DNA of 64,000 bases, taken from contig JAFTKO010000043.1 of the NCBI GenBank assembly GCA_017453205.1, positions 3,454-67,453 on the forward strand. Reading direction: 5' to 3'. Source of the stretch: Clostridia bacterium (GTDB lineage Bacteria; Bacillota; Clostridia; Oscillospirales; CAG-272). This document shows, one piece after another, positions 1 through 32,708 of the stretch; position 1 is the first letter of the stretch, and each line of letters opens with the position of its first letter. The notes beneath the pieces are model-generated. The model worked only from the letters and a program-made list of their open reading frames with translations. It was not told the DNA's origin and did not search any database. Both the position numbers and the translations under genes were made by a program.

Positions 1-1
1 T

Positions 2-1165
2 GAGGTGATTTCCAATAAGATTGAGCATCCCATCAACGCCGGCAACAAAAAGATTTTGATATTTACCGCTTTCTCCGATACCGCAAATTATCTCTATGAA
101 AACGTATCTGCATTTGTGAAAAATAAATATGGATTGAATACAGCGCAGATTACAGGAACGGTTGACGGCAAAACAACCATCCCGCGCTTCTCGGCAACGC
201 TTAATAACGTGCTGACCTATTTCTCCCCTATATCAAAGGACAAGCAGGTGCTGATGCCCAATAATAACGATAGCATTGATGTGCTGATCGCTACCGACTG
301 TATTTCCGAAGGTCAAAATCTGCAGGACTGCGATTACTGTATCAACTACGATATCCATTGGAATCCCGTTCGTATCATTCAGCGCTTTGGTCGAATCGAC
401 CGTATCGGATCAAAGAATGCTCATATTCAGCTTGTGAACTTCTGGCCAAATGTAACGCTTGACGATTACATCAATCTCAAGAGCCGCGTTGAGACTCGAA
501 TGAAGATTACGGTAATGACTTCTACGGGTGATGATGATCTCATCAATGCAGAGGAAAAGGGCGACCTTGAATACCGTAAAGCACAACTAAAACGACTTCA
601 GGAAGAGGTCGTAGATATTGAGGAAATGTCCAGCGGTATTTCTATTATGGACCTGGGGCTTAACGAATTTCGCCTTGATCTTCTGTCTTATACAAAGAAC
701 CACGGCGATCTTGACCACGTTCCATTCGGCATGAACGCAGTCGTTCCCGCAAGTGAGGATATGCCCGCAGGCGTGATATTCGTTCTAAAAAACCGCACCA
801 ATGCCGTCAATATCGGACATCAGAATCGCCTGCATCCGTTCTATATGGTGTATGTGGCAGAGGACGGTTCGGTGATTTGCGACCATCTTTCTCCCAAAGA
901 ACTGCTCGATAAAATGCGCTATCTTTGTAAGGACAAGACCTCGCCCTACGCCGAACTTTGCGCTGCGTTTAACCGTGAGACACGTGATGGCAAGGATATG
1001 AGAGTGTGCTCCAAGCTTCTTGGTGATGCGATACACTCTATCATTCACGTCAAGGAAGAAAGCGACATCAACAGTTTCCTCGGAGGTGAGCAGATCAGCT
1101 TTGCTGAGGGCGGCATTTCAGGGCTTGACGATTTTGAACTCATCTGTTTCTTAGTAGTAAAATAA
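2..1165 (+). CDS. SNF2-family helicase, C-terminal part (5' end outside window)
   Basis: The frame is open to the window edge. Helicase C-terminal motifs: KILIFTAFSDTANYL, IDVLIATDCISEGQNLQ, NYDIHWNPVRIIQRFGRIDRIGS (motif VI, QRxGRxxRxG type). Confidence 0.8.
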   Translation, partial: EVISNKIEHPINAGNKKILIFTAFSDTANYLYENVSAFVKNKYGLNTAQITGTVDGKTTIPRFSATLNNVLTYFSPISKDKQVLMPNNNDSIDVLIATDCISEGQNLQDCDYCINYDIHWNPVRIIQRFGRIDRIGSKNAHIQLVNFWPNVTLDDYINLKSRVETRMKITVMTSTGDDDLINAEEKGDLEYRKAQLKRLQEEVVDIEEMSSGISIMDLGLNEFRLDLLSYTKNHGDLDHVPFGMNAVVPASEDMPAGVIFVLKNRTNAVNIGHQNRLHPFYMVYVAEDGSVICDHLSPKELLDKMRYLCKDKTSPYAELCAAFNRETRDGKDMRVCSKLLGDAIHSIIHVKEESDINSFLGGEQISFAEGGISGLDDFELICFLVVK

Positions 1166-1175
1166 AGGAGTTGCT

Positions 1176-1481
1176 ATGACAAACGATACTATAATAACAA
1201 CAGTTTTAGAATATTTAAAGCAACGCCACCATCTTACCGATTTGGAAAAATCCATAATCGAAACCGCCAACGAGCTATCAAAGTATCCTTTTCAGCGTGA
1301 CAGTGCCGAGAAGAAGGTTGGAGAAAATTATTTGATGCATGGAGAACTGTTTGAAAATGAATTCAAGCATGCAAGTGTATTCGTCAAACCTCTTAATCAG
1401 TTGCCTGATGAAGATATTTTGGGAAATTTAAAGTTTCAGTTATTAAAAATGTGTGCAAAGGAACTGTCCAATCTACAATAA
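1176..1481 (+). CDS. Hypothetical 101-aa protein in the helicase/R-M operon
   Basis: ATG lies 7 nt after AAAGGAG and 10 nt after the helicase stop. No family recognised. Confidence 0.45.
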   Translation: MTNDTIITTVLEYLKQRHHLTDLEKSIIETANELSKYPFQRDSAEKKVGENYLMHGELFENEFKHASVFVKPLNQLPDEDILGNLKFQLLKMCAKELSNLQ

Positions 1482-1493
1482 GGAGGAATATCA

Positions 1494-2114
1494 GTGTTAG
1501 GTTTACCATCAAAAGCGAAAGTATCAAAAATGCTTCCCAAAAAAGCAATATACGAAAAATTCAATATGACCACAGCTCAAAAGGCAAAATTTGACGCTGA
1601 TATATCCCGTATCTCTATTGTTGGAGAGATTACACCGACAACTACGCAAATTGCGGCGGGAAAGGACATACAAGGCTTTTACATACTTCAAATCGTACTG
1701 AAGAACAAAAAGTACGACGAAAAGGCTATTGCGAGCCTCTCCAAACTGATACCTCAGCGTATGATTTTCCTTTTGCAGTATGAAAATCAGTATTGCCTTG
1801 CGTACTATCATAATCGCCTATACCACACGGAATGGGTGGAGCTTGATAGGCTTTTAGTGCCACTGTCGGGACTTGATCTTGACATTGTATGGGAAAACAC
1901 TATAAAACAGATTGTTTGCGGTGAAAATAGTGCTGCATGGGATGTCAATGCAACGATTGAGGAAAACATTGCTACGGAAACGCATCGGCGCAAATTGATA
2001 ACGGATATCGCATCGTTGGAAAAGAAGATACGTAGCGAGAAGCAACTAAATAGACAAATTCAGCTGAATGAAGAATTAAAACGCTTGAAAAAGGAGCTGG
2101 AGCAAATATCATGA
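1494..2114 (+). CDS. DUF4391-like protein
   Basis: GTG start after AAGGAGG. The N-terminal pattern LPKKAIYEKFNMT..QKAKFDADISRI, the size (~206 aa) and the position between an SNF2 helicase and a Mod-type methylase match my recollection of DUF4391 loci. Not verified by search. Confidence 0.5.
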   Translation: MLGLPSKAKVSKMLPKKAIYEKFNMTTAQKAKFDADISRISIVGEITPTTTQIAAGKDIQGFYILQIVLKNKKYDEKAIASLSKLIPQRMIFLLQYENQYCLAYYHNRLYHTEWVELDRLLVPLSGLDLDIVWENTIKQIVCGENSAAWDVNATIEENIATETHRRKLITDIASLEKKIRSEKQLNRQIQLNEELKRLKKELEQIS

Positions 2115-3268
2115 TTCAAGAATATCTTTTCATAAATAAGACAGAGAAAGAAAAAATCGAACAATATACTCCCGATGACATAAAAATTGAAATATATGAT
2201 ATTGATAATTCCGATTGCTGGATTGCAACATTTTCCTTGTCAAGCGAAAGTGAACCAAGCGCAAATACCTTATCGAAGGTTCACGAGTATATCATTGGAG
2301 AATTTCACCCCATTGTTTTGAGCAACGGTTGCTCTGCGTATTATAATAAAGCTCTTTTTCCCCATTTTAACGAATTCGAAAGAAAGCTGAGAAAATTGCT
2401 TTACCTAAAAAGTGCGCTGAGCAAGAATTCCAAAGATGCAGAGATCATAAAGGATTTGGAAAGCAAGGATTTCGGAGAAATATTTACTCTTTTGTTCTCG
2501 GATGCTCAGTTCGTACAAAATGCTAAGAAAACAATTGGCGATAAAACGTGGCAGTTTACCAAAGCTGAAATAGTTGCCGCGATAGAACAATTGTCCGAAC
2601 ATACTGTTTGGGATAACTTGATAGGAAAAGATGCGGTTCCACTGTTGCGTTCAGATTTTATTAAAGTTAAGAATTTTCGTAACGATGTAATGCATGCGCA
2701 TGCGATGAATGCCAAAAGTTATTCTTCTGCATTAAAGCTTATAAAAAAGATAAATGAGCAACTTGATACCGAAATTGGTAAAATTATTGTAGCCAAGGAG
2801 AATACGGTTCAACAAGAACCTGAACAGGATTTCAATACGGCTATGGGAGATGCTATAAAAGACATGGATTCTGTGCAGACCGCAAAAAGCTGGCAAGAAC
2901 AATTAGCAGAGCTGCAAGCTATGGCTTCTGGAATAAAGCCCCAGGGTATGATTGCGGCAATTGAAGAATACCGCCGTCTGACAAAATCGCCTGAAATAGT
3001 TGCTATGAGAGAATATCTTGTATCACCCGAATTTGCAGACATAACGAAACATGTTCAAGAAATATCAAAAATTCAATTGGATATTCCCCCAGTTGTTAAA
3101 GAGTTGCAGGAGCTTGCGGCATCAATGAAAGAATATAAAATCACTATTCCGCAGGAATTATTAGAATTGCAAAAATCTCTAAAAGATTTCAAACCGGATC
3201 CCGCATTAATTGAATTAGCCAAAAGCATGAAAGAAATAACAGGAGAAACAAAATCATGGAAAAAATGA
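2111..3268 (+). CDS. HEPN-domain protein (Swt1-like pattern) with a repeat-bearing helical C-terminal half
   Basis: ATGA overlap with the upstream stop. FERKLRKLLY helix plus an Rx4H motif, FRNDVMHAH (R at 2678-2680, H at 2693-2695). The C-terminus contains ELAASMKEY and ELAKSMKEI repeats. Confidence 0.5.
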   Translation: MIQEYLFINKTEKEKIEQYTPDDIKIEIYDIDNSDCWIATFSLSSESEPSANTLSKVHEYIIGEFHPIVLSNGCSAYYNKALFPHFNEFERKLRKLLYLKSALSKNSKDAEIIKDLESKDFGEIFTLLFSDAQFVQNAKKTIGDKTWQFTKAEIVAAIEQLSEHTVWDNLIGKDAVPLLRSDFIKVKNFRNDVMHAHAMNAKSYSSALKLIKKINEQLDTEIGKIIVAKENTVQQEPEQDFNTAMGDAIKDMDSVQTAKSWQEQLAELQAMASGIKPQGMIAAIEEYRRLTKSPEIVAMREYLVSPEFADITKHVQEISKIQLDIPPVVKELQELAASMKEYKITIPQELLELQKSLKDFKPDPALIELAKSMKEITGETKSWKK

Positions 3269-5256
3269 GAATGGAATCGGTAAATATGACCGAGCAGAAT
3301 ATAGAAAAGATCGGTGCGTTGTTCCCGAATTGTATCACGGAAACTGTAGATGAGAACGGGAAACTCAAGAAAGCAATCAATTTTGATATTCTCCGTCAGA
3401 TGCTGACCGAGGAAGCTATTGTGGGCGATGAAAAATATGAGTTTACATGGGTAGGTAAGAAAGCGGCAATTGTAGAAGCTAACAAGCCGATTCGTAAAAC
3501 TTTGCGCCCCTGTCCCGATGAAAGCAAAAATTGGGATTCGACCGAGAACCTATACATTGAGGGAGATAACCTTGAAGTGCTGAAGCTGTTGCAGGAAAGT
3601 TATCTTGGCAAGGTAAAGATGATCTATATTGATCCACCGTACAACACCGGAAATGATTTTGTATATAAAGACAACTATACAACGGACACCAATCAATACG
3701 CAGAACAAATCGGAGTTTTTAACGAGGATAACAATCGTTTGTTTCATAATACGGAAACCAATGGACGTTTTCATTCCGACTGGTGTAGTATGCTCTATGC
3801 CCGCCTACAACTTGCAAAGAATCTTTTAACTGATGATGGTGTTATTTTTATATCCATAGATGATAGTGAAATTCGAAATCTAAAGAATATTTGTGACGAG
3901 ATATTTGGAGGAGCGAACTTTATAGCTCAATTGATTTGGCAAAATAAAAAAGGCGGAGGCAATGATTCCACTCACATCGCAATTGAGCACGAATATATTT
4001 TGACTTATGCTAAAAACAAGGTCTTGTTAGGAGAGTTTTACGAATCCTATTCTGCAGAATATATAAAACGCTATAAAGAGGTTGATGATGTAGGTAGGTT
4101 TTATTGGGATACTTTTAAGCGTAAGGCTGGAAAACAATACTATCCGATTACATGTCCCGATGGAACTATCCTTGAATACGACGATGATGGCAACGCAATT
4201 AGTTGGCTAAGATCGAAAGAGCGATTTGATTCAGATATTAAAGCTGGGGAAATTAGAATCATTAAAGTAAACGACAAATGGTCGGTACAATTCAAGCAAC
4301 GAATTCCTTTAGGTAAAACCCCACGCAGTATTTTTACAACTAATACGGTTATTTCGGACAAAGGAACTACGAGTGCAGGAGCTAATGATGTATACGAATA
4401 CTTTAAGAAAGATGTCTTTTCCAATCCTAAGCCAGTTGCTTTGATTGAGTTTTTACTTGGCTTTGGGTTAGGCAAAGATGATATCGTATTGGACTTTTTT
4501 AGCGGATCGGGAACAACCGCTGAAGCGGTTATGCGTTCCAATCTTGATGGTAATCATAGAAAGTTTATCTTGGTTCAATTAGATGAAAACATCGATCCGA
4601 TGCTCAACAGTTCATCAGCAAATGCAAAGAGAGTGGCTGAGAATGCTGTGTCTGTTCTTGATCAGTTAAAACTACCACACACCATCCCTGAATTAGCCAA
4701 AATACGAATTAAAAGAGCTGGCGATAGCATAAAACAAAAATTGTTGGGAGAAGCTGCAATTAATCTGTTTGCAATAGACTTCAATCGTGATTTGGAACAA
4801 GAATTAAATCAAAGAACTGAATCAAAACTTGATTTGGCATCGGATTTAGACATCGGCTTCCGTGTGTTCAAGCTCGATGAATCCAACATGAATAGCGTAT
4901 ATTACAGTGCTGATGACTACTCCCAGGACATGCTCTCTATGTTGGAATCAAATATCAAGGACGACCGTACCGACCTCGATTTGCTGTTTGGTTGCTTACT
5001 TGAATGGGGATTGCCTCTTTCTCTGCCGTATAAATCCGAAAAAATTGAGGACTATACCGTTCACACCTATAATGACGGAGACCTGGTAGCATGCTTTGAG
5101 GAAAACATTCCCGAAACTGTCATTAAGGAGATCGCGAAGCGCAAACCTCTCCGCGCAGTCTTCCGCGACAGCAGCTTTGCCAATAGCCCTGCCAAGATCA
5201 ACGTAACAGAAATATTCAAGCTTCTTGCTCCCGATACAAGAGTGAAGGTGATCTGA
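3256..5256 (+). CDS. Site-specific DNA methyltransferase, Type III Mod-like (beta-class N6A/N4C)
   Basis: Motif IV, IYIDPPYNTGNDF, lies upstream of motif I, LDFFSGSGTTAEAV (beta-class order). GGAG sits 10 nt upstream of the ATG. The start overlaps the upstream gene; alternative in-frame ATGs run up to 3286. Confidence 0.85.
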   Translation: MEKMRMESVNMTEQNIEKIGALFPNCITETVDENGKLKKAINFDILRQMLTEEAIVGDEKYEFTWVGKKAAIVEANKPIRKTLRPCPDESKNWDSTENLYIEGDNLEVLKLLQESYLGKVKMIYIDPPYNTGNDFVYKDNYTTDTNQYAEQIGVFNEDNNRLFHNTETNGRFHSDWCSMLYARLQLAKNLLTDDGVIFISIDDSEIRNLKNICDEIFGGANFIAQLIWQNKKGGGNDSTHIAIEHEYILTYAKNKVLLGEFYESYSAEYIKRYKEVDDVGRFYWDTFKRKAGKQYYPITCPDGTILEYDDDGNAISWLRSKERFDSDIKAGEIRIIKVNDKWSVQFKQRIPLGKTPRSIFTTNTVISDKGTTSAGANDVYEYFKKDVFSNPKPVALIEFLLGFGLGKDDIVLDFFSGSGTTAEAVMRSNLDGNHRKFILVQLDENIDPMLNSSSANAKRVAENAVSVLDQLKLPHTIPELAKIRIKRAGDSIKQKLLGEAAINLFAIDFNRDLEQELNQRTESKLDLASDLDIGFRVFKLDESNMNSVYYSADDYSQDMLSMLESNIKDDRTDLDLLFGCLLEWGLPLSLPYKSEKIEDYTVHTYNDGDLVACFEENIPETVIKEIAKRKPLRAVFRDSSFANSPAKINVTEIFKLLAPDTRVKVI

Positions 5257-5822
5257 TGAAAAATCCATCATTAGCATATTTGGCGAAATCATTTTATAAT
5301 GCGTATATTGCCCTTGATCAGCTTGAACCGGATCAGGACGAATTGCTTTTGTATATCCCTAAATTGGTTAATGGAGCTTTTTCTGCTGAATTGATAATCA
5401 AGGCTATTTTAGTGGAACAAGATATACCTTATAATAACGAACATAATCTTAAAATTCTTTTTGAAAAACTTCCTATGGATTTTCAAAATAGAGTTTGGTA
5501 CTTTCTTGCTCAAAAAGCGCCGGAGTATGCAGATACGGAAAAGCGAGAAAACGAATTATTACTTATGTCAGATGCTTTTGTACAATGGAGATACTGTTAT
5601 GAAGGAAAGTTTGCACCTGCCTTCGATATACGATTTCTTTCGGCATTTACCAATGCACTTATTATTGTGATGTTCGAACTGGGATATAATGTGTTCTTTA
5701 CAAAATCAGAAATGGCACTTTCGCCAGAAGAATGTGCTGAGATTGATAAAAAAATTGAAAATAATCGCCGTGAATGTATGAAGAATAATGAAGCTAATAT
5801 AAAAAAGAAAAGCAGGAGGTGA
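5256..5822 (+). CDS. Small all-helical protein, possibly classical HEPN fold
   Basis: TGATG overlap with the mod stop. The pattern AELIIKAILVEQ..EHNLKILFEKL followed by FVQWRYCYE resembles PF05168-type HEPN (KALL..H.L..L ... RY). Weak, by eye only. Confidence 0.35.
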   Translation: MKNPSLAYLAKSFYNAYIALDQLEPDQDELLLYIPKLVNGAFSAELIIKAILVEQDIPYNNEHNLKILFEKLPMDFQNRVWYFLAQKAPEYADTEKRENELLLMSDAFVQWRYCYEGKFAPAFDIRFLSAFTNALIIVMFELGYNVFFTKSEMALSPEECAEIDKKIENNRRECMKNNEANIKKKSRR

Positions 5823-5827
5823 AAGAT

Positions 5828-8800
5828 ATGAAACTCCAATTTAAACATCAAAAATTCCAAGCTGACGCTGCCAAAGCGGTTGTAGATGTTTTTGCCGGAC
5901 AGCCCTATCTTACACCATCCTATATGATGGACAAAGGTAGCGTTTATCAGATGAAAACGACAGACGATGAAGATTTTACGGGCTGGCGCAATGAGCGTAT
6001 TGTGCCCGGACTTTCCGATGCCGTTATATTGGAGCATCTAAATAAAATACAACGTGCCAATCAAATTGCCCCCTCACTTCAGCTTGAAGGACGGTACAAT
6101 CTGACGATTGAGATGGAAACAGGCGTTGGCAAAACTTATACATACATCAAAACCATGTATGAGTTAAATAAGCATTACGGATGGAGCAAATTCATCGTGG
6201 TTGTTCCAAGCGTGGCAATCAGAGAGGGTGTTTACAAATCCTTTCAGGTAACGCAGGAGCATTTTGCGGAGGAATACGGTAAAAAAGTTCGCTTCTTTAT
6301 CTACAATTCTGCTCAGCTTACCGAGATTGACCGTTTTGCGTCTGACAACGGAATTAACGTTATGATCATCAATTCCCAAGCATTCAATGCTAAGGGCAAG
6401 GATGCGCGACGCATTTATATGAAGCTTGACGAATTCCGTTCCCGCCGTCCGATTGATATTATTGCAAAAACAAATCCTATTGTAATCATTGATGAGCCTC
6501 AGTCGGTAGAGGGAAAGCAAACCAAGGAGAGACTGAAGGAATTCAATCCTTTAATCACCTTGCGTTATTCGGCAACTCACAAATCCGACAGTATTTATAA
6601 TATGGTGTACCGTCTGGATGCAATGGAGGCGTACAACAAACGATTGGTAAAGAAGATTGCCGTAAAAGGAATTACCGAAACAGGAAGCACTGCAACCGAG
6701 GGATACGTATATCTTGAAAGCATCAATCTTTCAAAAGCAGATCCTACGGCAACCATTCAATTTGATGTCAAAGGTGCTTCGGGAATCAAGAAAAAGACGG
6801 CAACAGTCAATATCGGATATAATCTGTACGATCATTCAGGCAATCTTGATGAATACAAAAACAATTTTGTTGTTAAGGCAATTGACGGTCGTGACGATTC
6901 GGTGGAATTTCTTAATGGTATCAAAATTTACGCAGGCGATGTTATAGGCAAAGTAGCAGAGGATCAGTTACGCCGTATACAGATTCGAGAAACCATTCTA
7001 TCCCATATCGAGAGAGAAAGAAAGCTGTTCCACAAGGGGATCAAGGTGCTGTCTTTGTTCTTCATTGATGAAGTGCAAAAGTACAAGCAATATGATGAGG
7101 CAGGACAACCCTTTAATGGTATTTACGCTGATATGTTTGTTGAGGAATACAACGATATTCTCGGTAATATGCAGCTTCAGTTCGGTGACGATGATTATAT
7201 GCGTTATCTCAATGCGATTGATGCGAACGCTACACACGCCGGATACTTTTCTGTTGATAAAAAAGGACGTATGACCGATAGCAAATTCTCCGACAAAGCG
7301 GAAAAGACTTCAGATGATATTGATGCGTATGACCTAATCATGAAAAACAAGGAGTTGTTACTCGATCGTAATCCCAAGCGTTCACCGGTTCGCTTTATCT
7401 TCTCCCACTCTGCGTTAAGAGAAGGCTGGGATAATCCTAATGTATTCCAAATTTGCACGTTAAAGCAAAGTAGCAGCGAGGTGCGTAAGCGTCAGGAAGT
7501 CGGTCGCGGGTTGCGTCTTTGTGTCAATCAGGACGGAGAGCGTATGGATGCCAACGTGCTCGGAAACGATGTTCACAGCATCAATGTACTTACCGTTATT
7601 GCAAGTGAGAGCTACGACAAGTTTGCCAAAGGATTACAAGAGGAATTGGCAGATGCGGTGGCTAACCGTCCGCGCGCTGTTACCGTTGATTTGTTCAAGG
7701 GTAAGGTTATTAAGGATATCGACGGAAATGAAGTTGTTGTAGATGCAGACCTCGCTCAAGCTATTCACTATGAGATGATCATCAATGGCTATATCGACCG
7801 AAAAGGTAATCTTACGGATAAATATTACGAAGATAAGTCCAATTCGGAGATTAAGGTTGCGGAGGAGGTTGCCGATTGCACAGAATCAATCATTGATATC
7901 CTTGATTCTGTATATGACAGCAAGGCAATGCAGCCAGAAAATGCTCGAAGCAACAATGTGGAGTTACAGGTAAACAACGATAAGCTTCAAATGCAGGAAT
8001 TTAAAGCGCTATGGAAGCGTATCAATGCAAAATCCGTATACGTTGTGGATTTCGATACAGAGGAGCTGATTTCAAAAGCAATAGACAAATTGAATCTCAA
8101 GCTCAGAGTATCGAAGGTTTTCTTCAAAATCGAAAGCGGAGCAATGTCTGAAATAAAATCAAAAGAATCTTTACTGGAGGGATCGTCATTTACCAAAGAA
8201 AAATCCTCTATGTACAATCTTGAAAACACAATTCGCGCAAATCAAAGCGTTAAATACGATTTGGTTGGAAAGCTGGTAGAGGAAACAGGACTGACTCGCA
8301 AAGCGATCGTTGCTATTCTTCAAGGCATCGACAAAACTGTTTTTGATCAATTTAAGGACAATCCAGAAGATTTCATTATAAAAGCAGCTCAATTGATCAA
8401 TGACGAAAAGGCAACGGCAATTATTCAGCATATAACCTATAGTGTGATTGATGACTGCTATGATACGGATATCTTTACCGATGCTACAATCAAGGGTAAG
8501 CTTGGTGTAAATGCAATGAAAGCAAATAATCACCTGTACGATCATATCGTCTATGATTCTACTAATGAGCGCAATTTTGCAACAGAGCTTGATACAAATA
8601 CGGATGTTGCTGTATACGTTAAGCTTCCGAATAGCTTTTACATTACTACTCCGGTAGGCAAATATAACCCAGACTGGGCAATTGCCTTTTATGAGGGTAA
8701 GGTAAAGCACATCTATTTTGTAGCTGAAACCAAGGGTACAATGGATACAATGACATTTAACCACATTACTCCTGTTGAACAAGCAAAGATTGATTGTGCA

Positions 8801-8890
8801 AGAGAGCATTTTAAAGCTATTAGCGGTGATGATGTGGTGTATGATGTGGTCGATAGCTATCAAAGCCTGCTTGAAAAGGTTATGAAGTGA
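5828..8890 (+). CDS. Type III restriction enzyme Res subunit (helicase-nuclease)
   Basis: AGGAGG 8 nt upstream of the ATG. Walker A METGVGKTYT, motif II VIIDEPQSVEG, motif VI QEVGRGLRL. C-terminal PD-(D/E)xK-like YNPDWAIAF...YFVAETKG. Confidence 0.85.
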   Translation: MKLQFKHQKFQADAAKAVVDVFAGQPYLTPSYMMDKGSVYQMKTTDDEDFTGWRNERIVPGLSDAVILEHLNKIQRANQIAPSLQLEGRYNLTIEMETGVGKTYTYIKTMYELNKHYGWSKFIVVVPSVAIREGVYKSFQVTQEHFAEEYGKKVRFFIYNSAQLTEIDRFASDNGINVMIINSQAFNAKGKDARRIYMKLDEFRSRRPIDIIAKTNPIVIIDEPQSVEGKQTKERLKEFNPLITLRYSATHKSDSIYNMVYRLDAMEAYNKRLVKKIAVKGITETGSTATEGYVYLESINLSKADPTATIQFDVKGASGIKKKTATVNIGYNLYDHSGNLDEYKNNFVVKAIDGRDDSVEFLNGIKIYAGDVIGKVAEDQLRRIQIRETILSHIERERKLFHKGIKVLSLFFIDEVQKYKQYDEAGQPFNGIYADMFVEEYNDILGNMQLQFGDDDYMRYLNAIDANATHAGYFSVDKKGRMTDSKFSDKAEKTSDDIDAYDLIMKNKELLLDRNPKRSPVRFIFSHSALREGWDNPNVFQICTLKQSSSEVRKRQEVGRGLRLCVNQDGERMDANVLGNDVHSINVLTVIASESYDKFAKGLQEELADAVANRPRAVTVDLFKGKVIKDIDGNEVVVDADLAQAIHYEMIINGYIDRKGNLTDKYYEDKSNSEIKVAEEVADCTESIIDILDSVYDSKAMQPENARSNNVELQVNNDKLQMQEFKALWKRINAKSVYVVDFDTEELISKAIDKLNLKLRVSKVFFKIESGAMSEIKSKESLLEGSSFTKEKSSMYNLENTIRANQSVKYDLVGKLVEETGLTRKAIVAILQGIDKTVFDQFKDNPEDFIIKAAQLINDEKATAIIQHITYSVIDDCYDTDIFTDATIKGKLGVNAMKANNHLYDHIVYDSTNERNFATELDTNTDVAVYVKLPNSFYITTPVGKYNPDWAIAFYEGKVKHIYFVAETKGTMDTMTFNHITPVEQAKIDCAREHFKAISGDDVVYDVVDSYQSLLEKVMK

Positions 8891-8942
8891 TAAAACTATA
8901 ATTCTGAAATAATTGCAGTATAAACATACGGAGAAAAACAAT

Positions 8943-9725
8943 ATGAGTAACGATATAAATCAAGATCTTGCAAAGGAATTGGTTGCGCAGACCGCTGGTA
9001 AAACTTATGATGATATTGCGCATCCTACCGCTCACGCGACAGGGCAAATTATAAGTTTTATCCCAAGAACTATTAAGGTATGGCTTGGAAAGTGGGAAAA
9101 ATGGATTCTCAACGGTGAATATGCGATAAAAGAAACAGAGATACTTCTGGCAGAAAAGTTAAAACACATACCTGAAGAAAAAATCGTAGAGCCCGAGCCT
9201 TATGTTGCTGTGCCTGCATTGCAACAGTTGAGCTATAGTCTTGATAGTGAAGAGTTAAGAGAATTGTATGCAAATCTACTTGCTTCTTCGATGAATGCAG
9301 ACACAAAAGGAGATGTCCATCCCGCATTTGTGGATATTATTAAACAATTAGCTCCAGATGAAGCAAAATTGTTACGCTATTTTTCTGAACAAAAAGCTAT
9401 ACCTGCGGTAGAGGTTAGAAAACGGTCAGAAACTGGTACAGGTTTCAGAATTCTTGCAAAACTAAATTTTACAATGCCAGATGGATTGTTAGATGTTCCT
9501 CAAAATTATCTCGTGTATGTGGACAATTTAATTAGATTGCAACTTGTAGAAATTCCTGCAGATACACATTATTCCAACGAGTCTCTATATAAACCTCTTG
9601 AAAATCCAATTATCTATCTCGGTGCACCTACTGAACGATTAGTGTTTGAAAGGAAAATAGTTAAAATTTCTCCTTTTGGGAAGCTTTTTGTAAAAACATG
9701 CCAACCCAAACAAGAGGGAAAATAA
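8943..9725 (+). CDS. Abi-alpha / DUF4393-like abortive-infection protein
   Basis: GGAG upstream of the ATG. Pattern ...YDDIAHP..., VPALQQLSYSLDSEELRELYANLLASSMN, VHPAFVDIIKQLAPDEAKLL is typical of the Abi-alpha family as I recall it. Confidence 0.6.
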   Translation: MSNDINQDLAKELVAQTAGKTYDDIAHPTAHATGQIISFIPRTIKVWLGKWEKWILNGEYAIKETEILLAEKLKHIPEEKIVEPEPYVAVPALQQLSYSLDSEELRELYANLLASSMNADTKGDVHPAFVDIIKQLAPDEAKLLRYFSEQKAIPAVEVRKRSETGTGFRILAKLNFTMPDGLLDVPQNYLVYVDNLIRLQLVEIPADTHYSNESLYKPLENPIIYLGAPTERLVFERKIVKISPFGKLFVKTCQPKQEGK

Positions 9726-10096
9726 TGACAAAACAAGAATTTCTTGAATACTGCCTTGATACATACGGCACATCACCAGACTATCCGTTTGACGAGGATT
9801 TTGAGACGGCGGTGCTGAGGCACACGGACAATCGCAAGTGGTATGCGATTGTGATGAAGGTCTCGCGGTGCAAGTTTGGGTTTGACAGCGACGAGTTAAT
9901 CGACGTTGTCAATCTCAAGCTGCCGACGGAAATGTTCGGTTCGTTCGGTGCAGCGGACGGAGTATATCCAGCGTATCATATGAATAAGCTTCATTGGATT
10001 TCGGTGCTACTGCCCGATGCGCCTGAGGACGTGGTGCAGTTTCTCGTGAACGTAAGTTTTGAAGCCACAAAATCAGTTAAGAAAAGGGCAAAATAG
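9725..10096 (+). CDS. MmcQ/YjbR-family protein
   Basis: TAATG overlap with the upstream stop. YPFDEDFETAVLRHTDNRKWYAIVM and AYHMNKLHWISV are typical of YjbR-like proteins. It is more GC-rich than its neighbours. Confidence 0.6.
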   Translation: MTKQEFLEYCLDTYGTSPDYPFDEDFETAVLRHTDNRKWYAIVMKVSRCKFGFDSDELIDVVNLKLPTEMFGSFGAADGVYPAYHMNKLHWISVLLPDAPEDVVQFLVNVSFEATKSVKKRAK

Positions 10097-10159
10097 TCAT
10101 TTATCATACCGATTTTGAGAATGTCACAAAAAAGGCGGAAAAAAGGCAGAGATAAGCCG

Positions 10160-10188
10160 ATGACAAGTTAAAGTAAATATGTTATAAT
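10160..10188 (+). promoter_or_regulatory. Sigma-A-type promoter with extended -10
   Basis: -35 ATGACA (10160-10165), 17-nt spacer, TGT-TATAAT (-10 at 10183-10188). Confidence 0.5.
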
Positions 10189-10194
10189 GGTAAT

Positions 10195-10327
10195 GTCAAA
10201 AAGTGTAAGCTTTGATCGGGGCGTGGAGTTCCGGTTTTAGCTTGCACTTTTCATTTTGGCGCAGGCATAAATAAAGAGCCGCTATCAAGGCGTTTTCGTA
10301 ACGCTTTCGATAACGGCTTTTTCTTAT
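10195..10327 (+). ncRNA. Candidate small RNA (promoter, 12-bp stem-loop, intrinsic terminator); family unknown
   Basis: Sits downstream of the promoter above. The stem AAAGTGTAAGCT (10200-10211) pairs with AGCTTGCACTTT (10239-10250) with one G-U. A long imperfect hairpin at 10278-10317 is followed by TTTTTCTT. There is no SD-preceded ORF. Confidence 0.3.
10278..10327 (+). terminator. Rho-independent terminator
   Basis: Stem GCCGCTATCAAGGCG / CGCTTTCGATAACGGC (imperfect, ~15 bp) followed by a T-run. Confidence 0.5.
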
Positions 10328-10729
10328 GCAATTTTTGAAACGAAAAATAATTTTCAAAAATTTTCGGAAACGTGATGAGATTTTGCGTCAAAATTCCCAC
10401 TGTATTAGTAAAGACACTTAAAGCTCCTTTGAAAAATCAGAAAAGCTTGGGTGAAAAAATTCAATTTTTTTGAAAAAAGGTATAAAAATCGAGAGTTTTA
10501 AGTGTGGTTACAGTTGAAAGGCAAATAAATCTGCCTTTCTCCAAACTCAGATTTTAAGCTCGATCTGAGTGAGGTAATAGAAAGCTTGAAAGGAGGTGAA
10601 CACAGCAGTTTTCTATCAATACAGACATGAGTTTAAGACAAAGACAAGCATTAAAATTCCATCAGGACAAACGGTATCTGAATATCAAAAGAGCCACGCG
10701 TCAATAATTCAATGAAAGGAGTGAGCTGT

Positions 10730-10966
10730 ATGGAAATAAATGTTTATGACAACAAAAAATACGTATCGATATGGCTCACTCGCGGTGAGTCACGTGACAA
10801 TGCGCTTCGCGAAGATCTGAAACCGATCTACCAAAAATACAAGGCAATGGACTATAAGGTTGTGGTTTTTGAATCCGGCAACGGCGATCTGACTACGCTT
10901 ACCCAAAGTCTTCTTTCCTACAATCATCTGCTCAATGCACGCAAGGAGGCATCAGCGGATGGATAA
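10730..10966 (+). CDS. Hypothetical 78-aa protein immediately upstream of the recombinase (possible excision cofactor, speculative)
   Basis: AAAGGAG 7 nt upstream of the ATG at 10730. No family recognised. Confidence 0.45.
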   Translation: MEINVYDNKKYVSIWLTRGESRDNALREDLKPIYQKYKAMDYKVVVFESGNGDLTTLTQSLLSYNHLLNARKEASADG

Positions 10967-10994
10967 ACAATATTGTAAACATTTTTCTGTCATA

Positions 10995-11023
10995 TTGACT
11001 TGAAAACGAAAATATGTTACAAT
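10995..11023 (+). promoter_or_regulatory. Sigma-A-type promoter with extended -10 for the recombinase gene
   Basis: -35 TTGACT (10995-11000), 17-nt spacer, TGT-TACAAT (-10 at 11018-11023). AAAGGAG precedes the ATG at 11056. Confidence 0.5.
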
Positions 11024-11055
11024 GTTGTTAGCGATAACAAGAAAGGAGATATAAA

Positions 11056-13281
11056 ATGGTAGAAAGATACAAAATTGCCGCTTATACCCGTATTTCGGTG
11101 GACGTTGAGAAAGACACCGACAACACGAGTATCGAGAACCAAAAGGCAATTATTGCTGAGTATTGTAAGACTCACTTTCCAACGAGTACGGTGGATTACT
11201 ATGAAGACCGTGATAAATCCGGATATACGTTTAATCAGCGTCCGTGTTATTATTACGAGCTTCGTCCGAAGCTGATGAGCGGTGAGTATGATATTTTGAT
11301 CATCAAGGATCTGAGCCGTTTTTCTCGCCGTACAGGAAAGGGACTTGCCGAGTTTGAGGATCTTGTTGAAAATAATCTTCGCATCATTTCGATTGGTGAA
11401 TCCATCGATTACGAGGAGGGCAAGACCGACGACTGGTTGCAGATAAAGCTCTATTTCTTCGTTAACGAAATGCCCGTAACCGATGCCAGCAAAAAGGTAT
11501 TGGCAGTCATCGCAAACCGTCAGAAGAAGGGTGAGTGGGTCTGTTCGGTTCCTTACGGCTACGTAATGAAGAACACCAAAAAGATGATCTACGAGATTGA
11601 CGAGCCTGCCGCTGAGGTGGTTCGCGAGATCTTCCGCCTCTACATAAGTGGTTGGGGGTACAAGAGAATCGCCAATCATCTGACCGATAAAAAAATCCCA
11701 ACGCCGAGAATGTGCGAGAAAGCTCGCAAGGAGGCGATGGGAGATGAGTATCATGCGAAGGTTCGTGAGGAGTGGAGCATCATAACGGTATCGGAGATAC
11801 TCTGTAATGATTTCTATATCGGCACGCTTCGTTGCAAGAAATTTCAGCGGCAGAGGATCAATGGTCCCGACGTACCCGTTCACGAAAGCCAGCATATCGT
11901 TTTTGAGAACCATCATACGCCTATCGTTGACTCACGCACATTTATGACGGCGAAAGAGCAGCTGGAGCGCAGAAAGAAAGATCACTATCGCGGAGTAAAG
12001 AAAAACGAGAATAACTATTCCGGTTTCTTGATTTGCGGTGATTGCGGTTCTCCGATGTTTGCGAGAAATCGAGAGACTCTGAACGATGCCTACGTTTGCG
12101 GAAGGTATCACAGAAGAGGGCTGAAGGGATGCAAGGCTCACACGGTTAAGGTCGATTTTCTTGATGAAGTATTGAAGGAATATATCCGAAAGATCCGCGA
12201 TAATTCCGCTTCGATGATTGATGTTTTGAAGGATGCTATCAAAAACGAAGATCAGCGTACCGCTAACGGAAAGGAAGCCGCCGAGACTCTTATTGCGGAA
12301 ATTGAGGAGGAGCGCGACGTGCTTCGTTCCTTGGTAAAGCAAAGAGCCAAGGAGCTTGCAAGATCGGGCGAGGGATCCATTATGGTTGAATCCTACGATA
12401 TGGAGATTGACAGTTCCAGAAACCGTATTGAGGGCTTGCAAAATCAGCTTGAAATGGTGGCAAACACAACCAACACGATGGTTCGAGTTAATCGCGTTGC
12501 CAAGACCGTCATTGACGTTTTTAACGACATTTTGGAAAAGGATCACCTTGACAAGAACGATATCAACCTGATTATCAGTCACATGGTTGTTTTTGAGGAT
12601 CATATCGAGATCAAGCTGAAGGCGGAGATCGATGAGCTTCTAAGAACGGGTACGATCGAGCAGCTGAAACAGAATGAGGAAAGCGGAGCAGCCGTAAATT
12701 TTGACAAAGACACGGAAAATATCGAAAGCGCCGACGATTTCTATGAAATCGAGGCAGTACAGCGTGCAAATAAGCAGCATGACAAGGTTTTTCGTGTCAA
12801 TATTATCAGTGTGGGCGACCCGCTTGAAATCTATACTGACCGCGAAGGTGAAGTCATCTTTAAAAAATATTCTCCCATCGGCGAGCTCGCCTCGTTTGCG
12901 TCGCAATACGCCGAAACCCTGCACAAGACCTGTTCCCTTTCCGTCGTGATCTGTGACCGCGACGCCGTGATCGCTTGTGCGGGAGTCCCGCGCAAGGATT
13001 ACACCGACAAGGCACTCTCCGAGGAGCTGGAACAGATCATTGAGAACCGCTCTCTGTACTTCCACCGAGAGGACAGCGAGCCCATCCCCGTGCTTGCGGA
13101 AGGCGGAAGCTACTATGTCAGCTGTGCCATGCCCATCATCAGCGAGGGCGACATTGTCGGGTGCGTAGCGTCTGTTACCGATCAACCCGGAGCAGCGCGG
13201 CGCGAAGTTCCCGGAGGAGAAGTGGAAAGCAAGCTGATCCTTACCGCCGCCGGGTTTCTCGGCAGACAGCTGGAGAACTGA
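11056..13281 (+). CDS. Chimeric ORF: large serine recombinase (aa 1-586) read in frame into the spoVT 3' portion (aa 587-741)
   Basis: Resolvase N-terminus AAYTRISVD...IENQ, recombinase domain VPYGY, zinc ribbon CGDCGSPMF..YVCGRYHRRGLKGCKAH, then a coiled coil. From GDPLEIYTDREGEVIFKKYSPIGEL onwards it is colinear with SpoVT up to TAAGFLGRQLEN. Confidence 0.85.
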   Translation: MVERYKIAAYTRISVDVEKDTDNTSIENQKAIIAEYCKTHFPTSTVDYYEDRDKSGYTFNQRPCYYYELRPKLMSGEYDILIIKDLSRFSRRTGKGLAEFEDLVENNLRIISIGESIDYEEGKTDDWLQIKLYFFVNEMPVTDASKKVLAVIANRQKKGEWVCSVPYGYVMKNTKKMIYEIDEPAAEVVREIFRLYISGWGYKRIANHLTDKKIPTPRMCEKARKEAMGDEYHAKVREEWSIITVSEILCNDFYIGTLRCKKFQRQRINGPDVPVHESQHIVFENHHTPIVDSRTFMTAKEQLERRKKDHYRGVKKNENNYSGFLICGDCGSPMFARNRETLNDAYVCGRYHRRGLKGCKAHTVKVDFLDEVLKEYIRKIRDNSASMIDVLKDAIKNEDQRTANGKEAAETLIAEIEEERDVLRSLVKQRAKELARSGEGSIMVESYDMEIDSSRNRIEGLQNQLEMVANTTNTMVRVNRVAKTVIDVFNDILEKDHLDKNDINLIISHMVVFEDHIEIKLKAEIDELLRTGTIEQLKQNEESGAAVNFDKDTENIESADDFYEIEAVQRANKQHDKVFRVNIISVGDPLEIYTDREGEVIFKKYSPIGELASFASQYAETLHKTCSLSVVICDRDAVIACAGVPRKDYTDKALSEELEQIIENRSLYFHREDSEPIPVLAEGGSYYVSCAMPIISEGDIVGCVASVTDQPGAARREVPGGEVESKLILTAAGFLGRQLEN
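12814..13281 (+). pseudogene. spoVT: spoVT 3' fragment (lacks about the first 30 codons of the AbrB-type DNA-binding domain)
   Basis: 155 aa colinear with B. subtilis SpoVT, recalled from memory, from ...EGDPLEIFVDRDGEVILKKYSPISELGDFAKEYA... to ...TAAGFLARQMEQ. It has no start codon or RBS of its own. Confidence 0.8.
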
Positions 13282-13294
13282 CGTCAAAACAATA

Positions 13295-13329
13295 GGGACG
13301 CCTCGTTTTTGCGAAGCGCCCCTTATTTT
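13295..13329 (+). terminator. Rho-independent terminator after spoVT
   Basis: GGGACGCCTCG / CGAAGCGCCCC stem followed by TTATTTT. Confidence 0.5.
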
Positions 13330-29753: not shown

Positions 29754-30500
29754 TTACAGTTCAAAATAATGCATCGTAGATTTCAAAACAAATCCGCTTG
29801 AGACAGCCAATTTATTAGATGTTATGTTGTCAGCATTACATACCCAGTAGACAGATTGATTCTTTTCTTGACAGTGTAACAAAAAGGCATTTACCATTTT
29901 CTTGGCATATCCTAATCCGCGATACTGCTCATCTATCCATATGTTAATCCCATGACTGTTGTTATTACTGTATTCACTTAAACAATACCCGGATACGACA
30001 CCATCCATAACCAAAGCCAACCCAAATCCGTTTTGATAAAAATCTTCCACATCCGTATAAGAATACAATTCACTTATAACCAATTCAGTATTAGGCAAAT
30101 TATTCTCCATAAGGTTTCGCGTAATTTGAACTACACATTCGCTATCGTCATTAAGTTCGGTAATATTTTTATTATCGAACTGATATAAATTGAGATATCT
30201 GTCTTTCAACTTGTCTGAAAGTGTACTTTTAATAAAAGAACGCCATCTGTCATCCGGATAATAGAGATATAGTGGTTTATCATAATCATCTAATATTGAA
30301 ATAACTTTTTCACCATTCGCTTTTGAAAAATCTCCGCCAATAAAAGCACTTAGTCCCCATGATATCATGGCACTGCCATTCTCAACTAAAAAATGAACCT
30401 TACCCTGTTTTCTCAACAGAAGTGATTGTATTAAATTTTGGTAAATATAATAACTGTATAACGAAGAAATATCTGTTGTGAATTTATCATTATCTCTCAT
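29754..30500 (-). CDS. GNAT-family N-acetyltransferase
   Basis: C-terminal acetyl-CoA motif region YRGLGYAKKMVNAFLLHC. Very AT-rich gene. Confidence 0.6.
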   Translation of the reverse strand: MRDNDKFTTDISSLYSYYIYQNLIQSLLLRKQGKVHFLVENGSAMISWGLSAFIGGDFSKANGEKVISILDDYDKPLYLYYPDDRWRSFIKSTLSDKLKDRYLNLYQFDNKNITELNDDSECVVQITRNLMENNLPNTELVISELYSYTDVEDFYQNGFGLALVMDGVVSGYCLSEYSNNNSHGINIWIDEQYRGLGYAKKMVNAFLLHCQEKNQSVYWVCNADNITSNKLAVSSGFVLKSTMHYFEL

Positions 30501-30646
30501 TATCTTTCCCCTTTATGACCCGGTCGCTTTCTTTTCCCTTGGAGCAACAAATTCAAGTTTATCTGTTAGTTACATTCTACCATAAAATCATAGAAAAGTA
30601 AATAAGAGAGTCCAATTTTTGCAATTTTATATCACCCCGTTTCATT

Positions 30647-31522
30647 TTAATAATTTGGAACTGCCTGCATATGCGCCACAACATAGCCGCTGACCTCTGC
30701 CGCCTTTTGCATACAAGCCTCTATCGGCATCCCGTTCAAATAAGATACCAACCACGCCGCTGCAAAGCTGTCACCCGCACCGACAGTGGAAACCACCTTA
30801 TTTCCCACCGCACCTTGACGGTACTCCTTTTTCTCTTCCGATAAATACGCATAGGATCCATCCTTTCCGAGCGTTAAGATTAAAACCCGAATTTGAGGAT
30901 ATTTTTTACAGATTGCCCGCGCAATCGAAGAATAGGACTCCGACTCGGGGACATATCCCGCAAGACTGCGTAACAGACCCTCTTCCTCGATACTTACTTT
31001 TAATACCGTTGCATGGCGCATACAAAAATTCACCGACTCCGCGTCGTAGCAATTCGGGCGCAGATTGACATCACAGATCACATGAGCAAATGAACAGCGG
31101 GACACCAACTCGCAAACCGTTTTTCGTGACACAATATTTCTTTGTATCAGTGTTCCGAAATACAAGGCATCGTAGCCCTCCCTTGCAATACTCGCAAGTT
31201 CCTCATCGGCAAGACAGATATGATCATATGCCACATCACGCAAAACATTGTAATGCGGGACGGCGTTTTCATCCAATGTCACCAAGCATTGCCCTGTCGA
31301 TTGAGGATTGACTTTCACATATTTGTCAACGATTCCAAACGAATGCAACCATTTCATCGCTTCCTCGCCCAAAAGATCCTGTCCGACTGCCGAGATCAAG
31401 GCACTTTCCGCACCGCAAAGAACCGCATGTGCTGCAAAATTCAACGGTGCACCGCCAATGGTCTTTTTTTTCGGATAAATATCCCAAATGATTTCTCCAA
31501 TTGAAATAATTTTCTTTTTCAC
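30647..31522 (-). CDS. PfkB-family sugar kinase (fructokinase-like)
   Basis: IISIGEIIWD, GGAPLNFA, TVGAGDSFAAAW. GTG start at 31522 after AAAGGAG. Confidence 0.75.
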   Translation of the reverse strand: MKKKIISIGEIIWDIYPKKKTIGGAPLNFAAHAVLCGAESALISAVGQDLLGEEAMKWLHSFGIVDKYVKVNPQSTGQCLVTLDENAVPHYNVLRDVAYDHICLADEELASIAREGYDALYFGTLIQRNIVSRKTVCELVSRCSFAHVICDVNLRPNCYDAESVNFCMRHATVLKVSIEEEGLLRSLAGYVPESESYSSIARAICKKYPQIRVLILTLGKDGSYAYLSEEKKEYRQGAVGNKVVSTVGAGDSFAAAWLVSYLNGMPIEACMQKAAEVSGYVVAHMQAVPNY

Positions 31523-32009
31523 TACCGGTTCTCCTTTTATTTTTTTCAATTATACTCTTTTATTTTTATAATGTCAATACAAAAGGAGACAAATTAGTTG
31601 AATTATTGGGCATTGTAGCATTAATCGTAACCTTTACAACGCCCATTTTATCAGCTACTGATTCAAACAATTTATAGTGTATCTGACAGGAATTTGCGGT
31701 ACGTCTTAAAATAATCAAGCCATTCTCCTACTATCGAATTTATGATTTCGGCTAATCCAATCATCATGACCATCGGCTAAGCCGTGGCTTGCTCACGAAT
31801 CCCAAGCTGAGGTGTGAGTGCTTTTCTGCAAAGGAGGGAAAAGATTTTGGAGAAATGAGAGAAAAACAGTGAAAATTAAGTTTGGAGAAAAGTTTTTTCC
31901 ATTTTGCCAGTTTTTTAAATTCATGCACGCAAAAGCAAGCGTGACCTGCATCGTTACCTTCGCAGGTGTTTTTCAATACGACTTCCTTTTTGTCTACAAT
32001 CTGAATTTA

Positions 32010-32035
32010 CCGCAAATTGCAATAGCAATTTGCGG
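32010..32035. terminator. Perfect 11-bp hairpin downstream of the HAD gene
   Basis: CCGCAAATTGC aata GCAATTTGCGG. Confidence 0.4.
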
Positions 32036-32044
32036 CAAATAAGT

Positions 32045-32686: not shown

Positions 32687-32708
32687 TCTTTTCCTCCTTT
32701 TATGAACT

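Follow-up and report, generated by a model that had tools for sequence, protein, structure and literature searches.

A serine-recombinase element inserted into the sporulation gene spoVT of an uncultured Clostridia bacterium

The window analysed here is a 64,000-nt stretch of the Clostridia bacterium assembly GCA_017453205.1 (contig JAFTKO010000043.1, positions 3,454 to 67,453 of the forward strand). It holds the right attachment site (attR) side of an integrative element that was inserted into codon 32 of the sporulation gene spoVT by a large serine recombinase (LSR). Measured from core to core, the element spans 20,336 bp, of which positions 1-12818 of the window are the right 12.8 kb; a first-pass annotation made from the sequence alone had proposed an element of at least 12.8 kb inside spoVT, with which the full size agrees. 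Sequence comparison places the element in a large and very common family of serine-recombinase islands in uncultured gut Clostridia (Oscillospiraceae-like), all splitting spoVT at the same GA dinucleotide. The family is apparently undescribed so far.

Insertion of the element into spoVT

The recombinase gene and the 3' part of spoVT form one open reading frame (ORF) of 741 aa at window positions 11056-13281 on the + strand, in which the LSR is read in frame into spoVT codons 32-185. The Pfam search showed matches to Resolvase (PF00239) at aa 8-161, Recombinase (PF07508) at aa 185-306, Zn_ribbon_recom (PF13408) at aa 322-378 and SpoVT_C at aa 610-740 (E 1.4e-36). Residues 580-740 of the fused ORF correspond to profile positions 23-180 of 180 in the NCBIfam model TIGR02851 (spore_V_T equivalog) and to residues 24-177 of B. 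subtilis SpoVT (PDB 2W1T, E 4e-31), and aa 53-487 align with the closest solved recombinase, SprA of SPbeta (9DXH, E 5e-19), over a span that takes in the region corresponding to the LSR coiled-coil motif. The catalytic domain with its nucleophilic serine and, in the C-terminal half, the Recombinase and zinc-ribbon domains are all present, as expected for an LSR; Y10, R12 and S14 and the zinc-ribbon residues Cys327, 330, 348 and 359 are invariant among 27 family members. These results bear out the earlier reading of the ORF as an LSR whose residues 587-741 are colinear with SpoVT and match SpoVT models. The recombinase scored below the cut-offs of both the CcrB equivalog (118 bits vs 900) and the XisF equivalog (64 vs 375), and its relation to XisF and to the SCCmec cassette recombinases (CcrA/B/C) is one of general family similarity only. 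The exact 741-aa protein is present on six metagenome contigs. The features of this region are as follows.

10995-11023, + strand: sigma-A-type promoter-like site of the recombinase gene (consensus match only)
11056-12816, + strand: LSR coding part, aa 1-587 (ORF call, Pfam, NCBIfam, PDB, invariant residues)
12794-12809, + strand: predicted P-arm recombinase-binding motif GTGTCAATATTATCAG, 7 nt left of the crossover (consensus of 54 attR and 7 attL sequences)
12813-12822, + strand: identity between attR and the left attachment site (attL), GGGCGACCCG, with GA at 12817-12818 (shared string, dyad, L093 duplication, codon variation)
12817-13281, + strand: spoVT 3' fragment, codons 32-185 and stop, with the last two AbrB-type strands and the entire GAF-like C-terminal domain (Pfam, TIGR02851, 2W1T, empty alleles)
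13294-13323, no strand: GC-rich terminator-like hairpin after spoVT, on the host side (sequence)

The promoter-like site reads TTGACT-17-TACAAT with an upstream TG, which is 10/12 matches to the consensus and a consensus match only, and it is kept in the related element L117. The first 11 kb have a GC content of 0.37-0.43, the recombinase gene one of 0.46-0.47 and the DNA to its right one of 0.50-0.57, consistent with the AT-rich left side and GC-rich right side described previously. About 30 spoVT codons had been reported as missing. The 5' end is indeed gone, and the break sits in codon 32, so that this side lacks the first 31 codons and two bases of codon 32. A six-frame motif search found the AbrB-type N-terminus encoded nowhere in the window, which ruled out a spoVT 5' end within it and located that end outside.

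By walking leftward from the window with its 101-aa protein (feature 1176-1481 below), we reached L003, a 167-kb contig from another sample that is identical to the window over the 11,481-nt overlap. The spoVT 5' fragment MKATGIVRRIDDLGRVVIPKEIRRTMRIREGDP, whose presence upstream on the same strand had been named beforehand as a test, lies at L003 1213-1311 on that strand with a ribosome-binding site before it, and its ORF continues 28 codons into low-GC element DNA. The attL is thus 7.5 kb upstream of the window start, and attR lies within the window. Joining the two flanks in silico gave a 185-aa SpoVT that spans TIGR02851 positions 1-180 of 180 with 223.3 bits against a cut-off of 235.9; by these profile matches the rejoined protein appears to be an SpoVT orthologue in all but the strict TIGR02851 score.

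Uninterrupted spoVT genes of the same species were found in two contigs from other samples, L010 and L011, which were reached via the downstream DUF378 protein. They share with the window the order GH38 mannosidase, spoVT, DUF378, lipase and holB, and their intact alleles carry PF04014 and PF15714. Alignment to such loci had been suggested by the first-pass annotation, and the rejoined gene matched: the rejoined locus is colinear with both, with 10 mismatches in 1589 nt and no indel, and the 185-aa SpoVT is identical. The five differences between window and empty alleles that fall within spoVT are all synonymous. Since the 5' half lies upstream and the empty-site alleles encode the same SpoVT, we concluded that the insertion is real, precise and polymorphic within a species.

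Attachment sites within the recombinase gene

The 10-bp identity GGGCGACCCG is the longest string shared by attL and attR (L003 1302-1311 and window 12813-12822, respectively). The attP deduced for the window element is GTGTCAATATTATCAG-TGTGGGC-GA-CCCGACA-CTGACAATGTTGACAC, a dyad-symmetric site of the form GTGTCAATRTTRTCAG-N7-GA-N7-inverted copy. A consensus drawn from 54 unique attR and 7 attL sequences gave GTGTCAATGTTRTCAG-N7-GA-N7-CTGACAAYATTGACAC for the family, a symmetric attP of 48 bp whose 16-bp arms are inverted repeats, each 7 nt from the central GA. The rejoined attB contains ATGCGTATCCGCGAGGGCGACCCGCTTGAAATCTATACT and the predicted attP contains GTGTCAATATTATCAGTGTGGGCGACCCGACACTGACAATGTTGACAC; the attB region is strongly conserved at the DNA level across 80 genomes. 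From three independent observations we infer that the crossover dinucleotide is GA at window positions 12817-12818, the first two bases of spoVT codon 32 (Asp32). It is the dyad centre of attP, the codon preceding it (Gly, Val, Pro or Ala) follows the recombinase lineage and not the host, and in L093, one of the relic loci described below, a duplicated spoVT 5' segment stops exactly at GA. The imperfect palindrome that the first-pass annotation placed just before the junction at about 12796-12809 is real but lies at 12795-12808, within the 16-bp P-arm motif GTGTCAATATTATCAG; the inverted partner of the motif is at attL and not nearby.

In both the HMM and PDB searches, aa 580-589 of the fused ORF (RVNIISVGDP) aligned with SpoVT residues 24-33 (T.RIREGDP), because the P and B half-sites resemble each other in the same reading frame. 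An 18.3-kb IMG/VR contig (L202, IMGVR_UViG_3300029705_005362) stops exactly at the crossover GA, ...AGTGGTGA (11600-11790). This end may be an assembly branch point that arose from the coexistence of integrated and excised forms or from several hosts in the sample.

No member of the family has a stop codon before the crossover, and in-frame read-through is a fixed property of the family because attP lies within the recombinase gene. In the excised circle, as built in silico, the recombinase ORF would run into the left end of the element and stop after about 28 codons, giving a protein of 617 aa. Among the attL ORFs this tail has the consensus (T/S)L(T/I)xLTPx(D/N)RF(C/I)FAML(D/E)LSKRxG. Its synonymous sites are constrained within the P' arm (synonymous divergence, pS, 0.23) and free beyond it (pS 0.50), where amino-acid changes are fewer (nonsynonymous divergence, pN, 0.28). 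AlphaFold predicted a helix at residues 40-60 of the attL hybrid protein (pLDDT 70-78), and the Pfam AbrB/MazE model PF04014 ends at residue 32 of this hybrid. Completion of the AbrB swapped-hairpin fold by the attL tail was ruled out, since the profile stops at residue 32 and the tail, with a helix and not strands, therefore does not rebuild the DNA-binding fold. Integration is thus predicted to exchange the conserved, helical tail of about 28 aa of the recombinase for SpoVT residues 32-185.

Distribution, cargo and a conserved partner gene

With the full fused ORF as query, at least 120 protein clusters were obtained with 63-92% identity, all about 740 aa in length and with all four domains. 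A metagenome scan yielded 80 further loci, down to 49% identity, and every one of these that includes the junction reads VNV(I/V)SxG followed across it by DPLEI(Y/F)T. Overall, at least 200 fused ORFs with 49-97% identity share the same junction, and relatives with the fusion always have foreign DNA on the left, as opposed to the fusion without foreign DNA that the first-pass annotation had named as a refuting case. Using the attL hybrid ORF as query, at least 120 clusters of 56-84 aa were found, and one attL hybrid sequence is listed in 994 index blocks of the collection. Both spoVT halves are intact in all of the about 200 fused ORFs and about 120 attL ORF clusters seen. The carrier samples come from human (including Hadza and Nepali cohorts), ruminant, chicken and rodent gut, and the nearest genomes are metagenome-assembled genomes of uncultured Eubacteriales, Oscillospiraceae or Clostridia, with a best spoVT match of 91%.

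A first recombinase scan of IMG/VR gave no match. An alignment-based scan of the same collection gave 8 loci, the six closest of which (48-61% identity) carry the fused ORF or are cut within it; the other two are distant recombinases (22-25% identity). L202, the sole IMG/VR locus whose genes were scanned, showed no phage structural genes. The best phage relatives of the recombinase were only 47-50% identical and lie in small unannotated faecal contigs.

The identities of the two parts of the fused ORF are decoupled, with 97% for the recombinase vs 75% for SpoVT in one comparison and 92% vs 54% in another, and recombinases that are 98-99.6% identical in amino acids adjoin spoVT fragments at a synonymous distance (dS) >1. 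We therefore concluded that the element moves horizontally, inserting each time into the same site, and is not an inherited fusion. The recombinase itself has a dN/dS of about 0.08 and evolves under purifying selection. A genuine, vertically inherited fusion of a recombinase with a SpoVT C-domain, with no mobile element, or else an assembly chimera, would agree with the occurrence of the same four-domain architecture in hundreds of proteins. Such an origin is scarcely credible, as the missing 5' half lies exactly one element-length upstream, empty sites exist, the recombinase and SpoVT parts are discordant in divergence, and independent assemblies from many studies and samples have the same junction; the first three of these findings rule out an evolved domain fusion.

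The cargo was surveyed in window positions 1-10096 and in the loci L115, L117 and L017-L034. The genes of the element within the window and left of the recombinase gene are listed below; the part left of the window encodes a DUF6100 protein, an HNH-like protein and an ATPase_2/DUF234 ATPase.

5-1165, + strand: 1072-aa SNF2/ResIII-family helicase, of which only the C-terminal part lies within the window (Pfam SNF2-rel_dom, ResIII, Helicase_C; full gene at L003 6772-9990)
1176-1481, + strand: 101-aa protein with no family match (ORF, profile searches)
1494-2114, + strand: DUF4391 protein (profile match)
2111-3268, + strand: 385-aa protein with no family match (ORF, profile searches)
3256-5256, + strand: N6/N4 DNA methyltransferase, type III-like modification subunit (PF01555)
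5256-5822, + strand: 188-aa protein with a weak HEPN match (PF05168, E 0.0018, under the curated cut-off)
5819-8890, + strand: restriction subunit with ResIII helicase and RE_endonuc domains (Pfam)
8943-9725, + strand: Abi_alpha abortive-infection protein (PF14337, E 1.7e-57)
9725-10096, + strand: YjbR-family protein (Pfam)
10730-10966, + strand: 78-aa protein adjoining the recombinase, candidate recombination directionality factor (homologue in 69/80 loci)

By these matches the element is predicted to carry anti-phage defence cargo that includes a type III-like restriction-modification system. No capsid, portal, terminase, tail or conjugation genes were found among its genes, and no phage genes in the visible parts of related elements. 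Different cargo is found in the relatives: type I restriction-modification with a TIR/SEFIR protein; BREX BrxL with an LRR protein and a NikA-like protein; type I restriction-modification with a protein kinase and TnpV; capsule/polysaccharide-synthesis clusters with a giant LRR/dockerin protein and a tyrosine integrase; and ParB-like proteins with a second serine recombinase. The core of the family consists only of the LSR and the adjacent protein of about 78 aa, with no left-end gene in common. Next to attL the window element has the gene for the DUF6100 protein (+ strand), and other elements have a 223-aa gene (- strand) or small ORFs; as this first gene differs between elements, the idea that the spoVT promoter drives a conserved left-end excision gene was ruled out.

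Two elements that differ in cargo encode versions of the 78-aa protein with 84% and 58% identity. A six-frame HMM search detected a homologue in 69 of the 80 loci with enough upstream sequence, where its gene mostly starts 326-500 nt upstream of the recombinase catalytic motif on the same strand. The protein matched nothing in Pfam or PHROG, and Foldseek returned nothing below E 0.4 with a model of moderate quality (pLDDT 71). Because of its position and its co-conservation with the recombinase, we consider it the best candidate for a recombination directionality factor. A GNATA box lies 47-54 nt before its start codon in most lineages. Scored against the B. subtilis consensus sequences (sigma-F, GYATR-N15-GGHRARHTX; sigma-G, GHATR-N18-CATXHTA), the region before this gene gave 13/13 in L202, 12/13 in L186, 12/13 in L201 and, for sigma-G, 10/11 in L115.

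Between the YjbR gene and the 78-aa gene lies a 630-bp stretch (window 10097-10729) with no convincing ORF and no Rfam match. Its right half is well conserved with L117, e.g. GGAGGTGAAC...CAGTTTTCTATCA.TACAGACATGAGTTT.AGACAAAGACAAG, and the stretch may serve the recombination module, either in its regulation or as a small RNA. In sample ERZ28018778 the element was assembled in two pieces (L002 and L004), one contig beginning 667 bp before the recombinase gene and the other stopping a little past YjbR. This places the break in the non-coding stretch ahead of the 78-aa gene, and strain variation at that position may be the cause.

Fate of the split gene

Intervening elements in sporulation genes are the textbook case of programmed DNA rearrangement, and the accepted view is that they are tolerated since they are excised only in the terminally differentiated mother cell. 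The targets described in the papers that we found are sigK, spsM, spoVFB, spoVR, gerE and yabG, and these sources present excision as a mother-cell phenomenon that leaves the spore genome untouched. In the literature searched we found no paper that names spoVT as an integration target or ties it to a recombinase, integrase, prophage or intervening element, in line with the remark of the first-pass annotation that it knew of no description of spoVT as a target. SpoVT is expressed in the forespore and required for mature spores in C. difficile, and in both this species and B. subtilis its gene belongs to the sigma-F/sigma-G forespore genes (PMC3789822). By eye, the spoVT promoter is sigma-G-like, reading GTATA-N17-AATACTA in relatives and GGATA-N18-AATAATA in the window host; from this and from orthology, forespore specificity of spoVT in the window host is assumed. 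In common with known intervening elements, this one interrupts the reading frame of a sporulation gene, has a serine recombinase gene at its edge and would, as the in-silico join shows, restore the frame on precise excision; it departs from them in that its target is a forespore gene and not a mother-cell-specific one.

The likeness to skin in sigK (SpoIVCA in B. subtilis; CD1231 with the directionality factor CD1234 in C. difficile) consists in precise rejoining, in cargo that is unrelated between members (Galperin preprint) and, for C. difficile skin, in a sigma-A-driven recombinase with a small factor of about 72 aa that controls excision, for both of which the spoVT element has candidate equivalents. 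Unlike skin, the spoVT element sits in a forespore gene, its recombinase ORF lacks its own stop codon and continues into the target gene, its excision is proposed, and the sequence similarity is at family level only. SPbeta in spsM (SprA, SprB) provides the nearest solved recombinase and an attP with inverted repeats around a short core, and its integrase and directionality-factor genes form a two-gene unit portable between elements (PMC6957869); in contrast to the spoVT element, which has no phage genes, SPbeta is an active phage in a mother-cell gene, and the 78-aa protein is not detectably related to SprB. The gin element in gerE of B. cereus ATCC 10987 is likewise non-phage, of similar size (28.6 kb) and inside a small transcription-factor gene, and yin in yabG of C. 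botulinum has been seen in culture in both integrated and circular forms; both have mother-cell targets and occur rarely or only in particular strains, in contrast to the spoVT family, which is abundant in many host species. Excision without loss followed by re-integration occurs in active lysogeny (the comK phage of Listeria), and this is the behaviour that a forespore model needs. In mycobacteriophage integration-dependent immunity attP lies in a coding gene, and integration alters the C-terminus of the protein, there a repressor and not an integrase. Both systems use other recombinases, genes and triggers. In kind, then, the element is an ordinary, skin-like intervening element; its forespore target, the recombinase gene that spans attP with an obligatory in-frame fusion, and its prevalence are not ordinary.

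Four GTDB genomes (L050, L083, L093 and L061) showed an attL-type hybrid ORF, made up of spoVT codons 1-32 and an element tail, 1.05-1.5 kb upstream of an intact spoVT. The loci are as follows.

L050 8932-10549: relic locus
L083 47-1644: relic locus
L093 1785-3471: relic locus
L061 8515-10540: relic locus

L050, L083 and L093 have a second copy of the spoVT promoter region and 5' coding part, the two copies in L093 being identical from -65 to the GA crossover; in L061 the duplication starts only about 5 nt before the start codon, and the promoter is outside it. The spacer holds one or two unrelated minus-strand genes (esterase-like, deacetylase-like or acyltransferase-like). These loci look like the remains of elements whose loss restored spoVT, and an intact spoVT beside a decaying attL relic thus points to selection to regain the gene.

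Searches for the excised form covered IMG/VR, plasmid and phage collections and the 207 fetched loci. The attP pattern had no match in IMG/VR, in the fetched loci or among plasmids, and one in the phage collection. This sole match, L207 (MT836257.1, a human faecal 'Bacteriophage sp.') at 2640-2810, is a C-terminal recombinase remnant, ...EDKVFRVHVISNGDPP-stop (ending GDPP-stop), with the P-arm motif, beside unrelated peptidase and oligopeptide-transporter genes; it appears to be a decayed right end in another context, with neither recombinase body nor spoVT. A chimeric query of recombinase end and tail found only three attL ORFs and missed known fusions, and is thus insensitive for the excised form.

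The element may behave like skin and SPbeta. The recombinase would be made constitutively from the sigma-A-type promoter, and the 78-aa protein, acting as directionality factor, would trigger precise attL x attR excision during sporulation and so rebuild spoVT. Because SpoVT acts in the forespore, excision would have to take place in this germline compartment, if the hosts need SpoVT. The non-replicating circle would survive in the spore, where a circle without a replicon is not diluted because the spore does not divide, and would re-integrate at germination by the factor-independent attP x attB reaction. We consider such behaviour, with sporulation-time excision in the forespore and re-integration at germination, to be quite possible, while leaning slightly against it. 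Taken as a whole, the observed insertion together with developmental excision is the explanation that we favour with moderate confidence. The further version, in which germline excision, a circle in the spore and re-insertion at germination are joined by a reading of the integration state through the swapped C-terminus, may apply and is rather unlikely.

The developmental account is consistent with both junctions, the size, the empty alleles, the symmetric attP, the invariant recombinase residues and the conserved partner gene. Also in its favour are the full-length rebuilt spoVT, the size, constant junction and horizontal spread of the family, the purifying selection on the recombinase, the sigma-A-like promoter, the good sigma-F or sigma-G matches ahead of the small gene in four lineages, the constraint on the split spoVT 3' part, the relics beside an intact spoVT and the forespore role of SpoVT. 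The recombinase of C. difficile skin is also constitutive, and a 72-aa directionality factor without sequence similarity to known proteins sets the cell type there (PMC5025042). Several points weigh on the other side. The 78-aa protein has no detectable relation to any known directionality factor, and the promoter of the window's own 78-aa gene scored 9/11 (shuffle p = 0.4), with the largest lineage also lacking a sigma-F/sigma-G fit. Among occupied alleles the spoVT 3' part showed 236 nonsynonymous vs 2558 synonymous differences (219 pairs); such a low dN/dS can also arise if the genes evolved in the uninterrupted state and received the element only recently by horizontal insertion, and it was set aside as proof that the split gene is used, the strong signal being confounded by the demonstrated horizontal transfer. 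Neither an attP form nor a 617-aa recombinase was found in the collections and loci named above, by searches none of which is sensitive. No genome occurred twice among the best 80 of 539 spoVT matches, which is weak evidence for a single copy and compatible with a divergent paralogue. To our knowledge, every experimentally studied intervening element lies in a mother-cell gene, and germline excision is without precedent and risks loss of the element.

The element might instead simply inactivate its target. Here spoVT would be hit only for its extremely conserved codons 20-45, sporulation would be lost or weakened and this tolerated in gut-adapted lineages, and excision would be sporadic, serving transfer, with no developmental control. 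The DNA-level conservation of the attB region across 80 genomes, the coexistence of occupied and empty alleles in one species, the weak promoter match of the window's 78-aa gene and the failure of insensitive searches to find an excised form are all compatible with this, as are the defence cargo, whose benefit is unrelated to sporulation, and the relics with restored spoVT, which show that carriage can be costly. A mere knock-out is harder to reconcile with the intactness of both spoVT halves in all the fused ORFs and attL ORF clusters seen and with the strong synonymous excess in the split 3' half, confounded though the latter is by horizontal transfer. The hosts also keep other sporulation genes, such as those for SpoVAC beside L117 and SpoIIE beside L027, and a conserved module of recombinase and small protein is standard equipment for regulated excision (PMC5025042). 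On balance we consider plain inactivation rather improbable. A different proposal, compatible with either developmental excision or a knock-out, is that the exchange of the helical tail for the GAF-like domain of SpoVT is itself functional and sets the directionality, stability or ligand control of the recombinase. The lack of a stop before the crossover in every family member, the excess of pS (0.50) over pN (0.28) past the binding arm and the predicted helix (pLDDT 70-78) would fit a recombinase that senses its own state. Yet read-through is automatic once attP lies in the gene and the frames coincide, a one-in-three chance, the tail constraint is only moderate (ratio 0.56), and the function of SpoVT itself accounts for the constraint on its part. 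We know of no experiment or precedent for such a C-terminus in serine recombinases, and this proposal seems to us distinctly doubtful.

A very common family in a forespore gene breaks the mother-cell logic of intervening elements. It could be a mobile switch that turns off sporulation, and with it transmission, in many gut Clostridia, or it could follow a reversible germline excision cycle, and either outcome bears on the variation in sporulation capacity among gut commensals. Should germline excision with a reading of the integration state through the C-terminus hold true, endospore formers would have their first developmental DNA rearrangement on the germline side, and serine integrases a new form of regulation. 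The family further offers a compact, well-defined serine integrase system in which a symmetric attP of 48 bp is combined with a conserved attB, located in a near-universal gene of the Firmicutes, and with a candidate directionality factor. It is also a natural vehicle for the spread of restriction, BREX, TIR and abortive-infection defences and of surface-polysaccharide clusters between species. Annotation mislabels both halves; the NCBI names seen were 'recombinase family protein' and 'AbrB/MazE/SpoVT family DNA-binding domain-containing protein'.

In the remainder of the window, as in its left part, no Rfam family reached threshold. A stretch at 29754-39996 (- strand) has a lower GC content (0.36-0.45) and shows no sign of a mobile element; its genes are ordinary metabolic ones, encoding a GNAT acetyltransferase, a PfkB kinase, a HAD hydrolase, a DUF218 protein, two GDPD phosphodiesterases, an M20 peptidase and an Exo_endo_phos protein.

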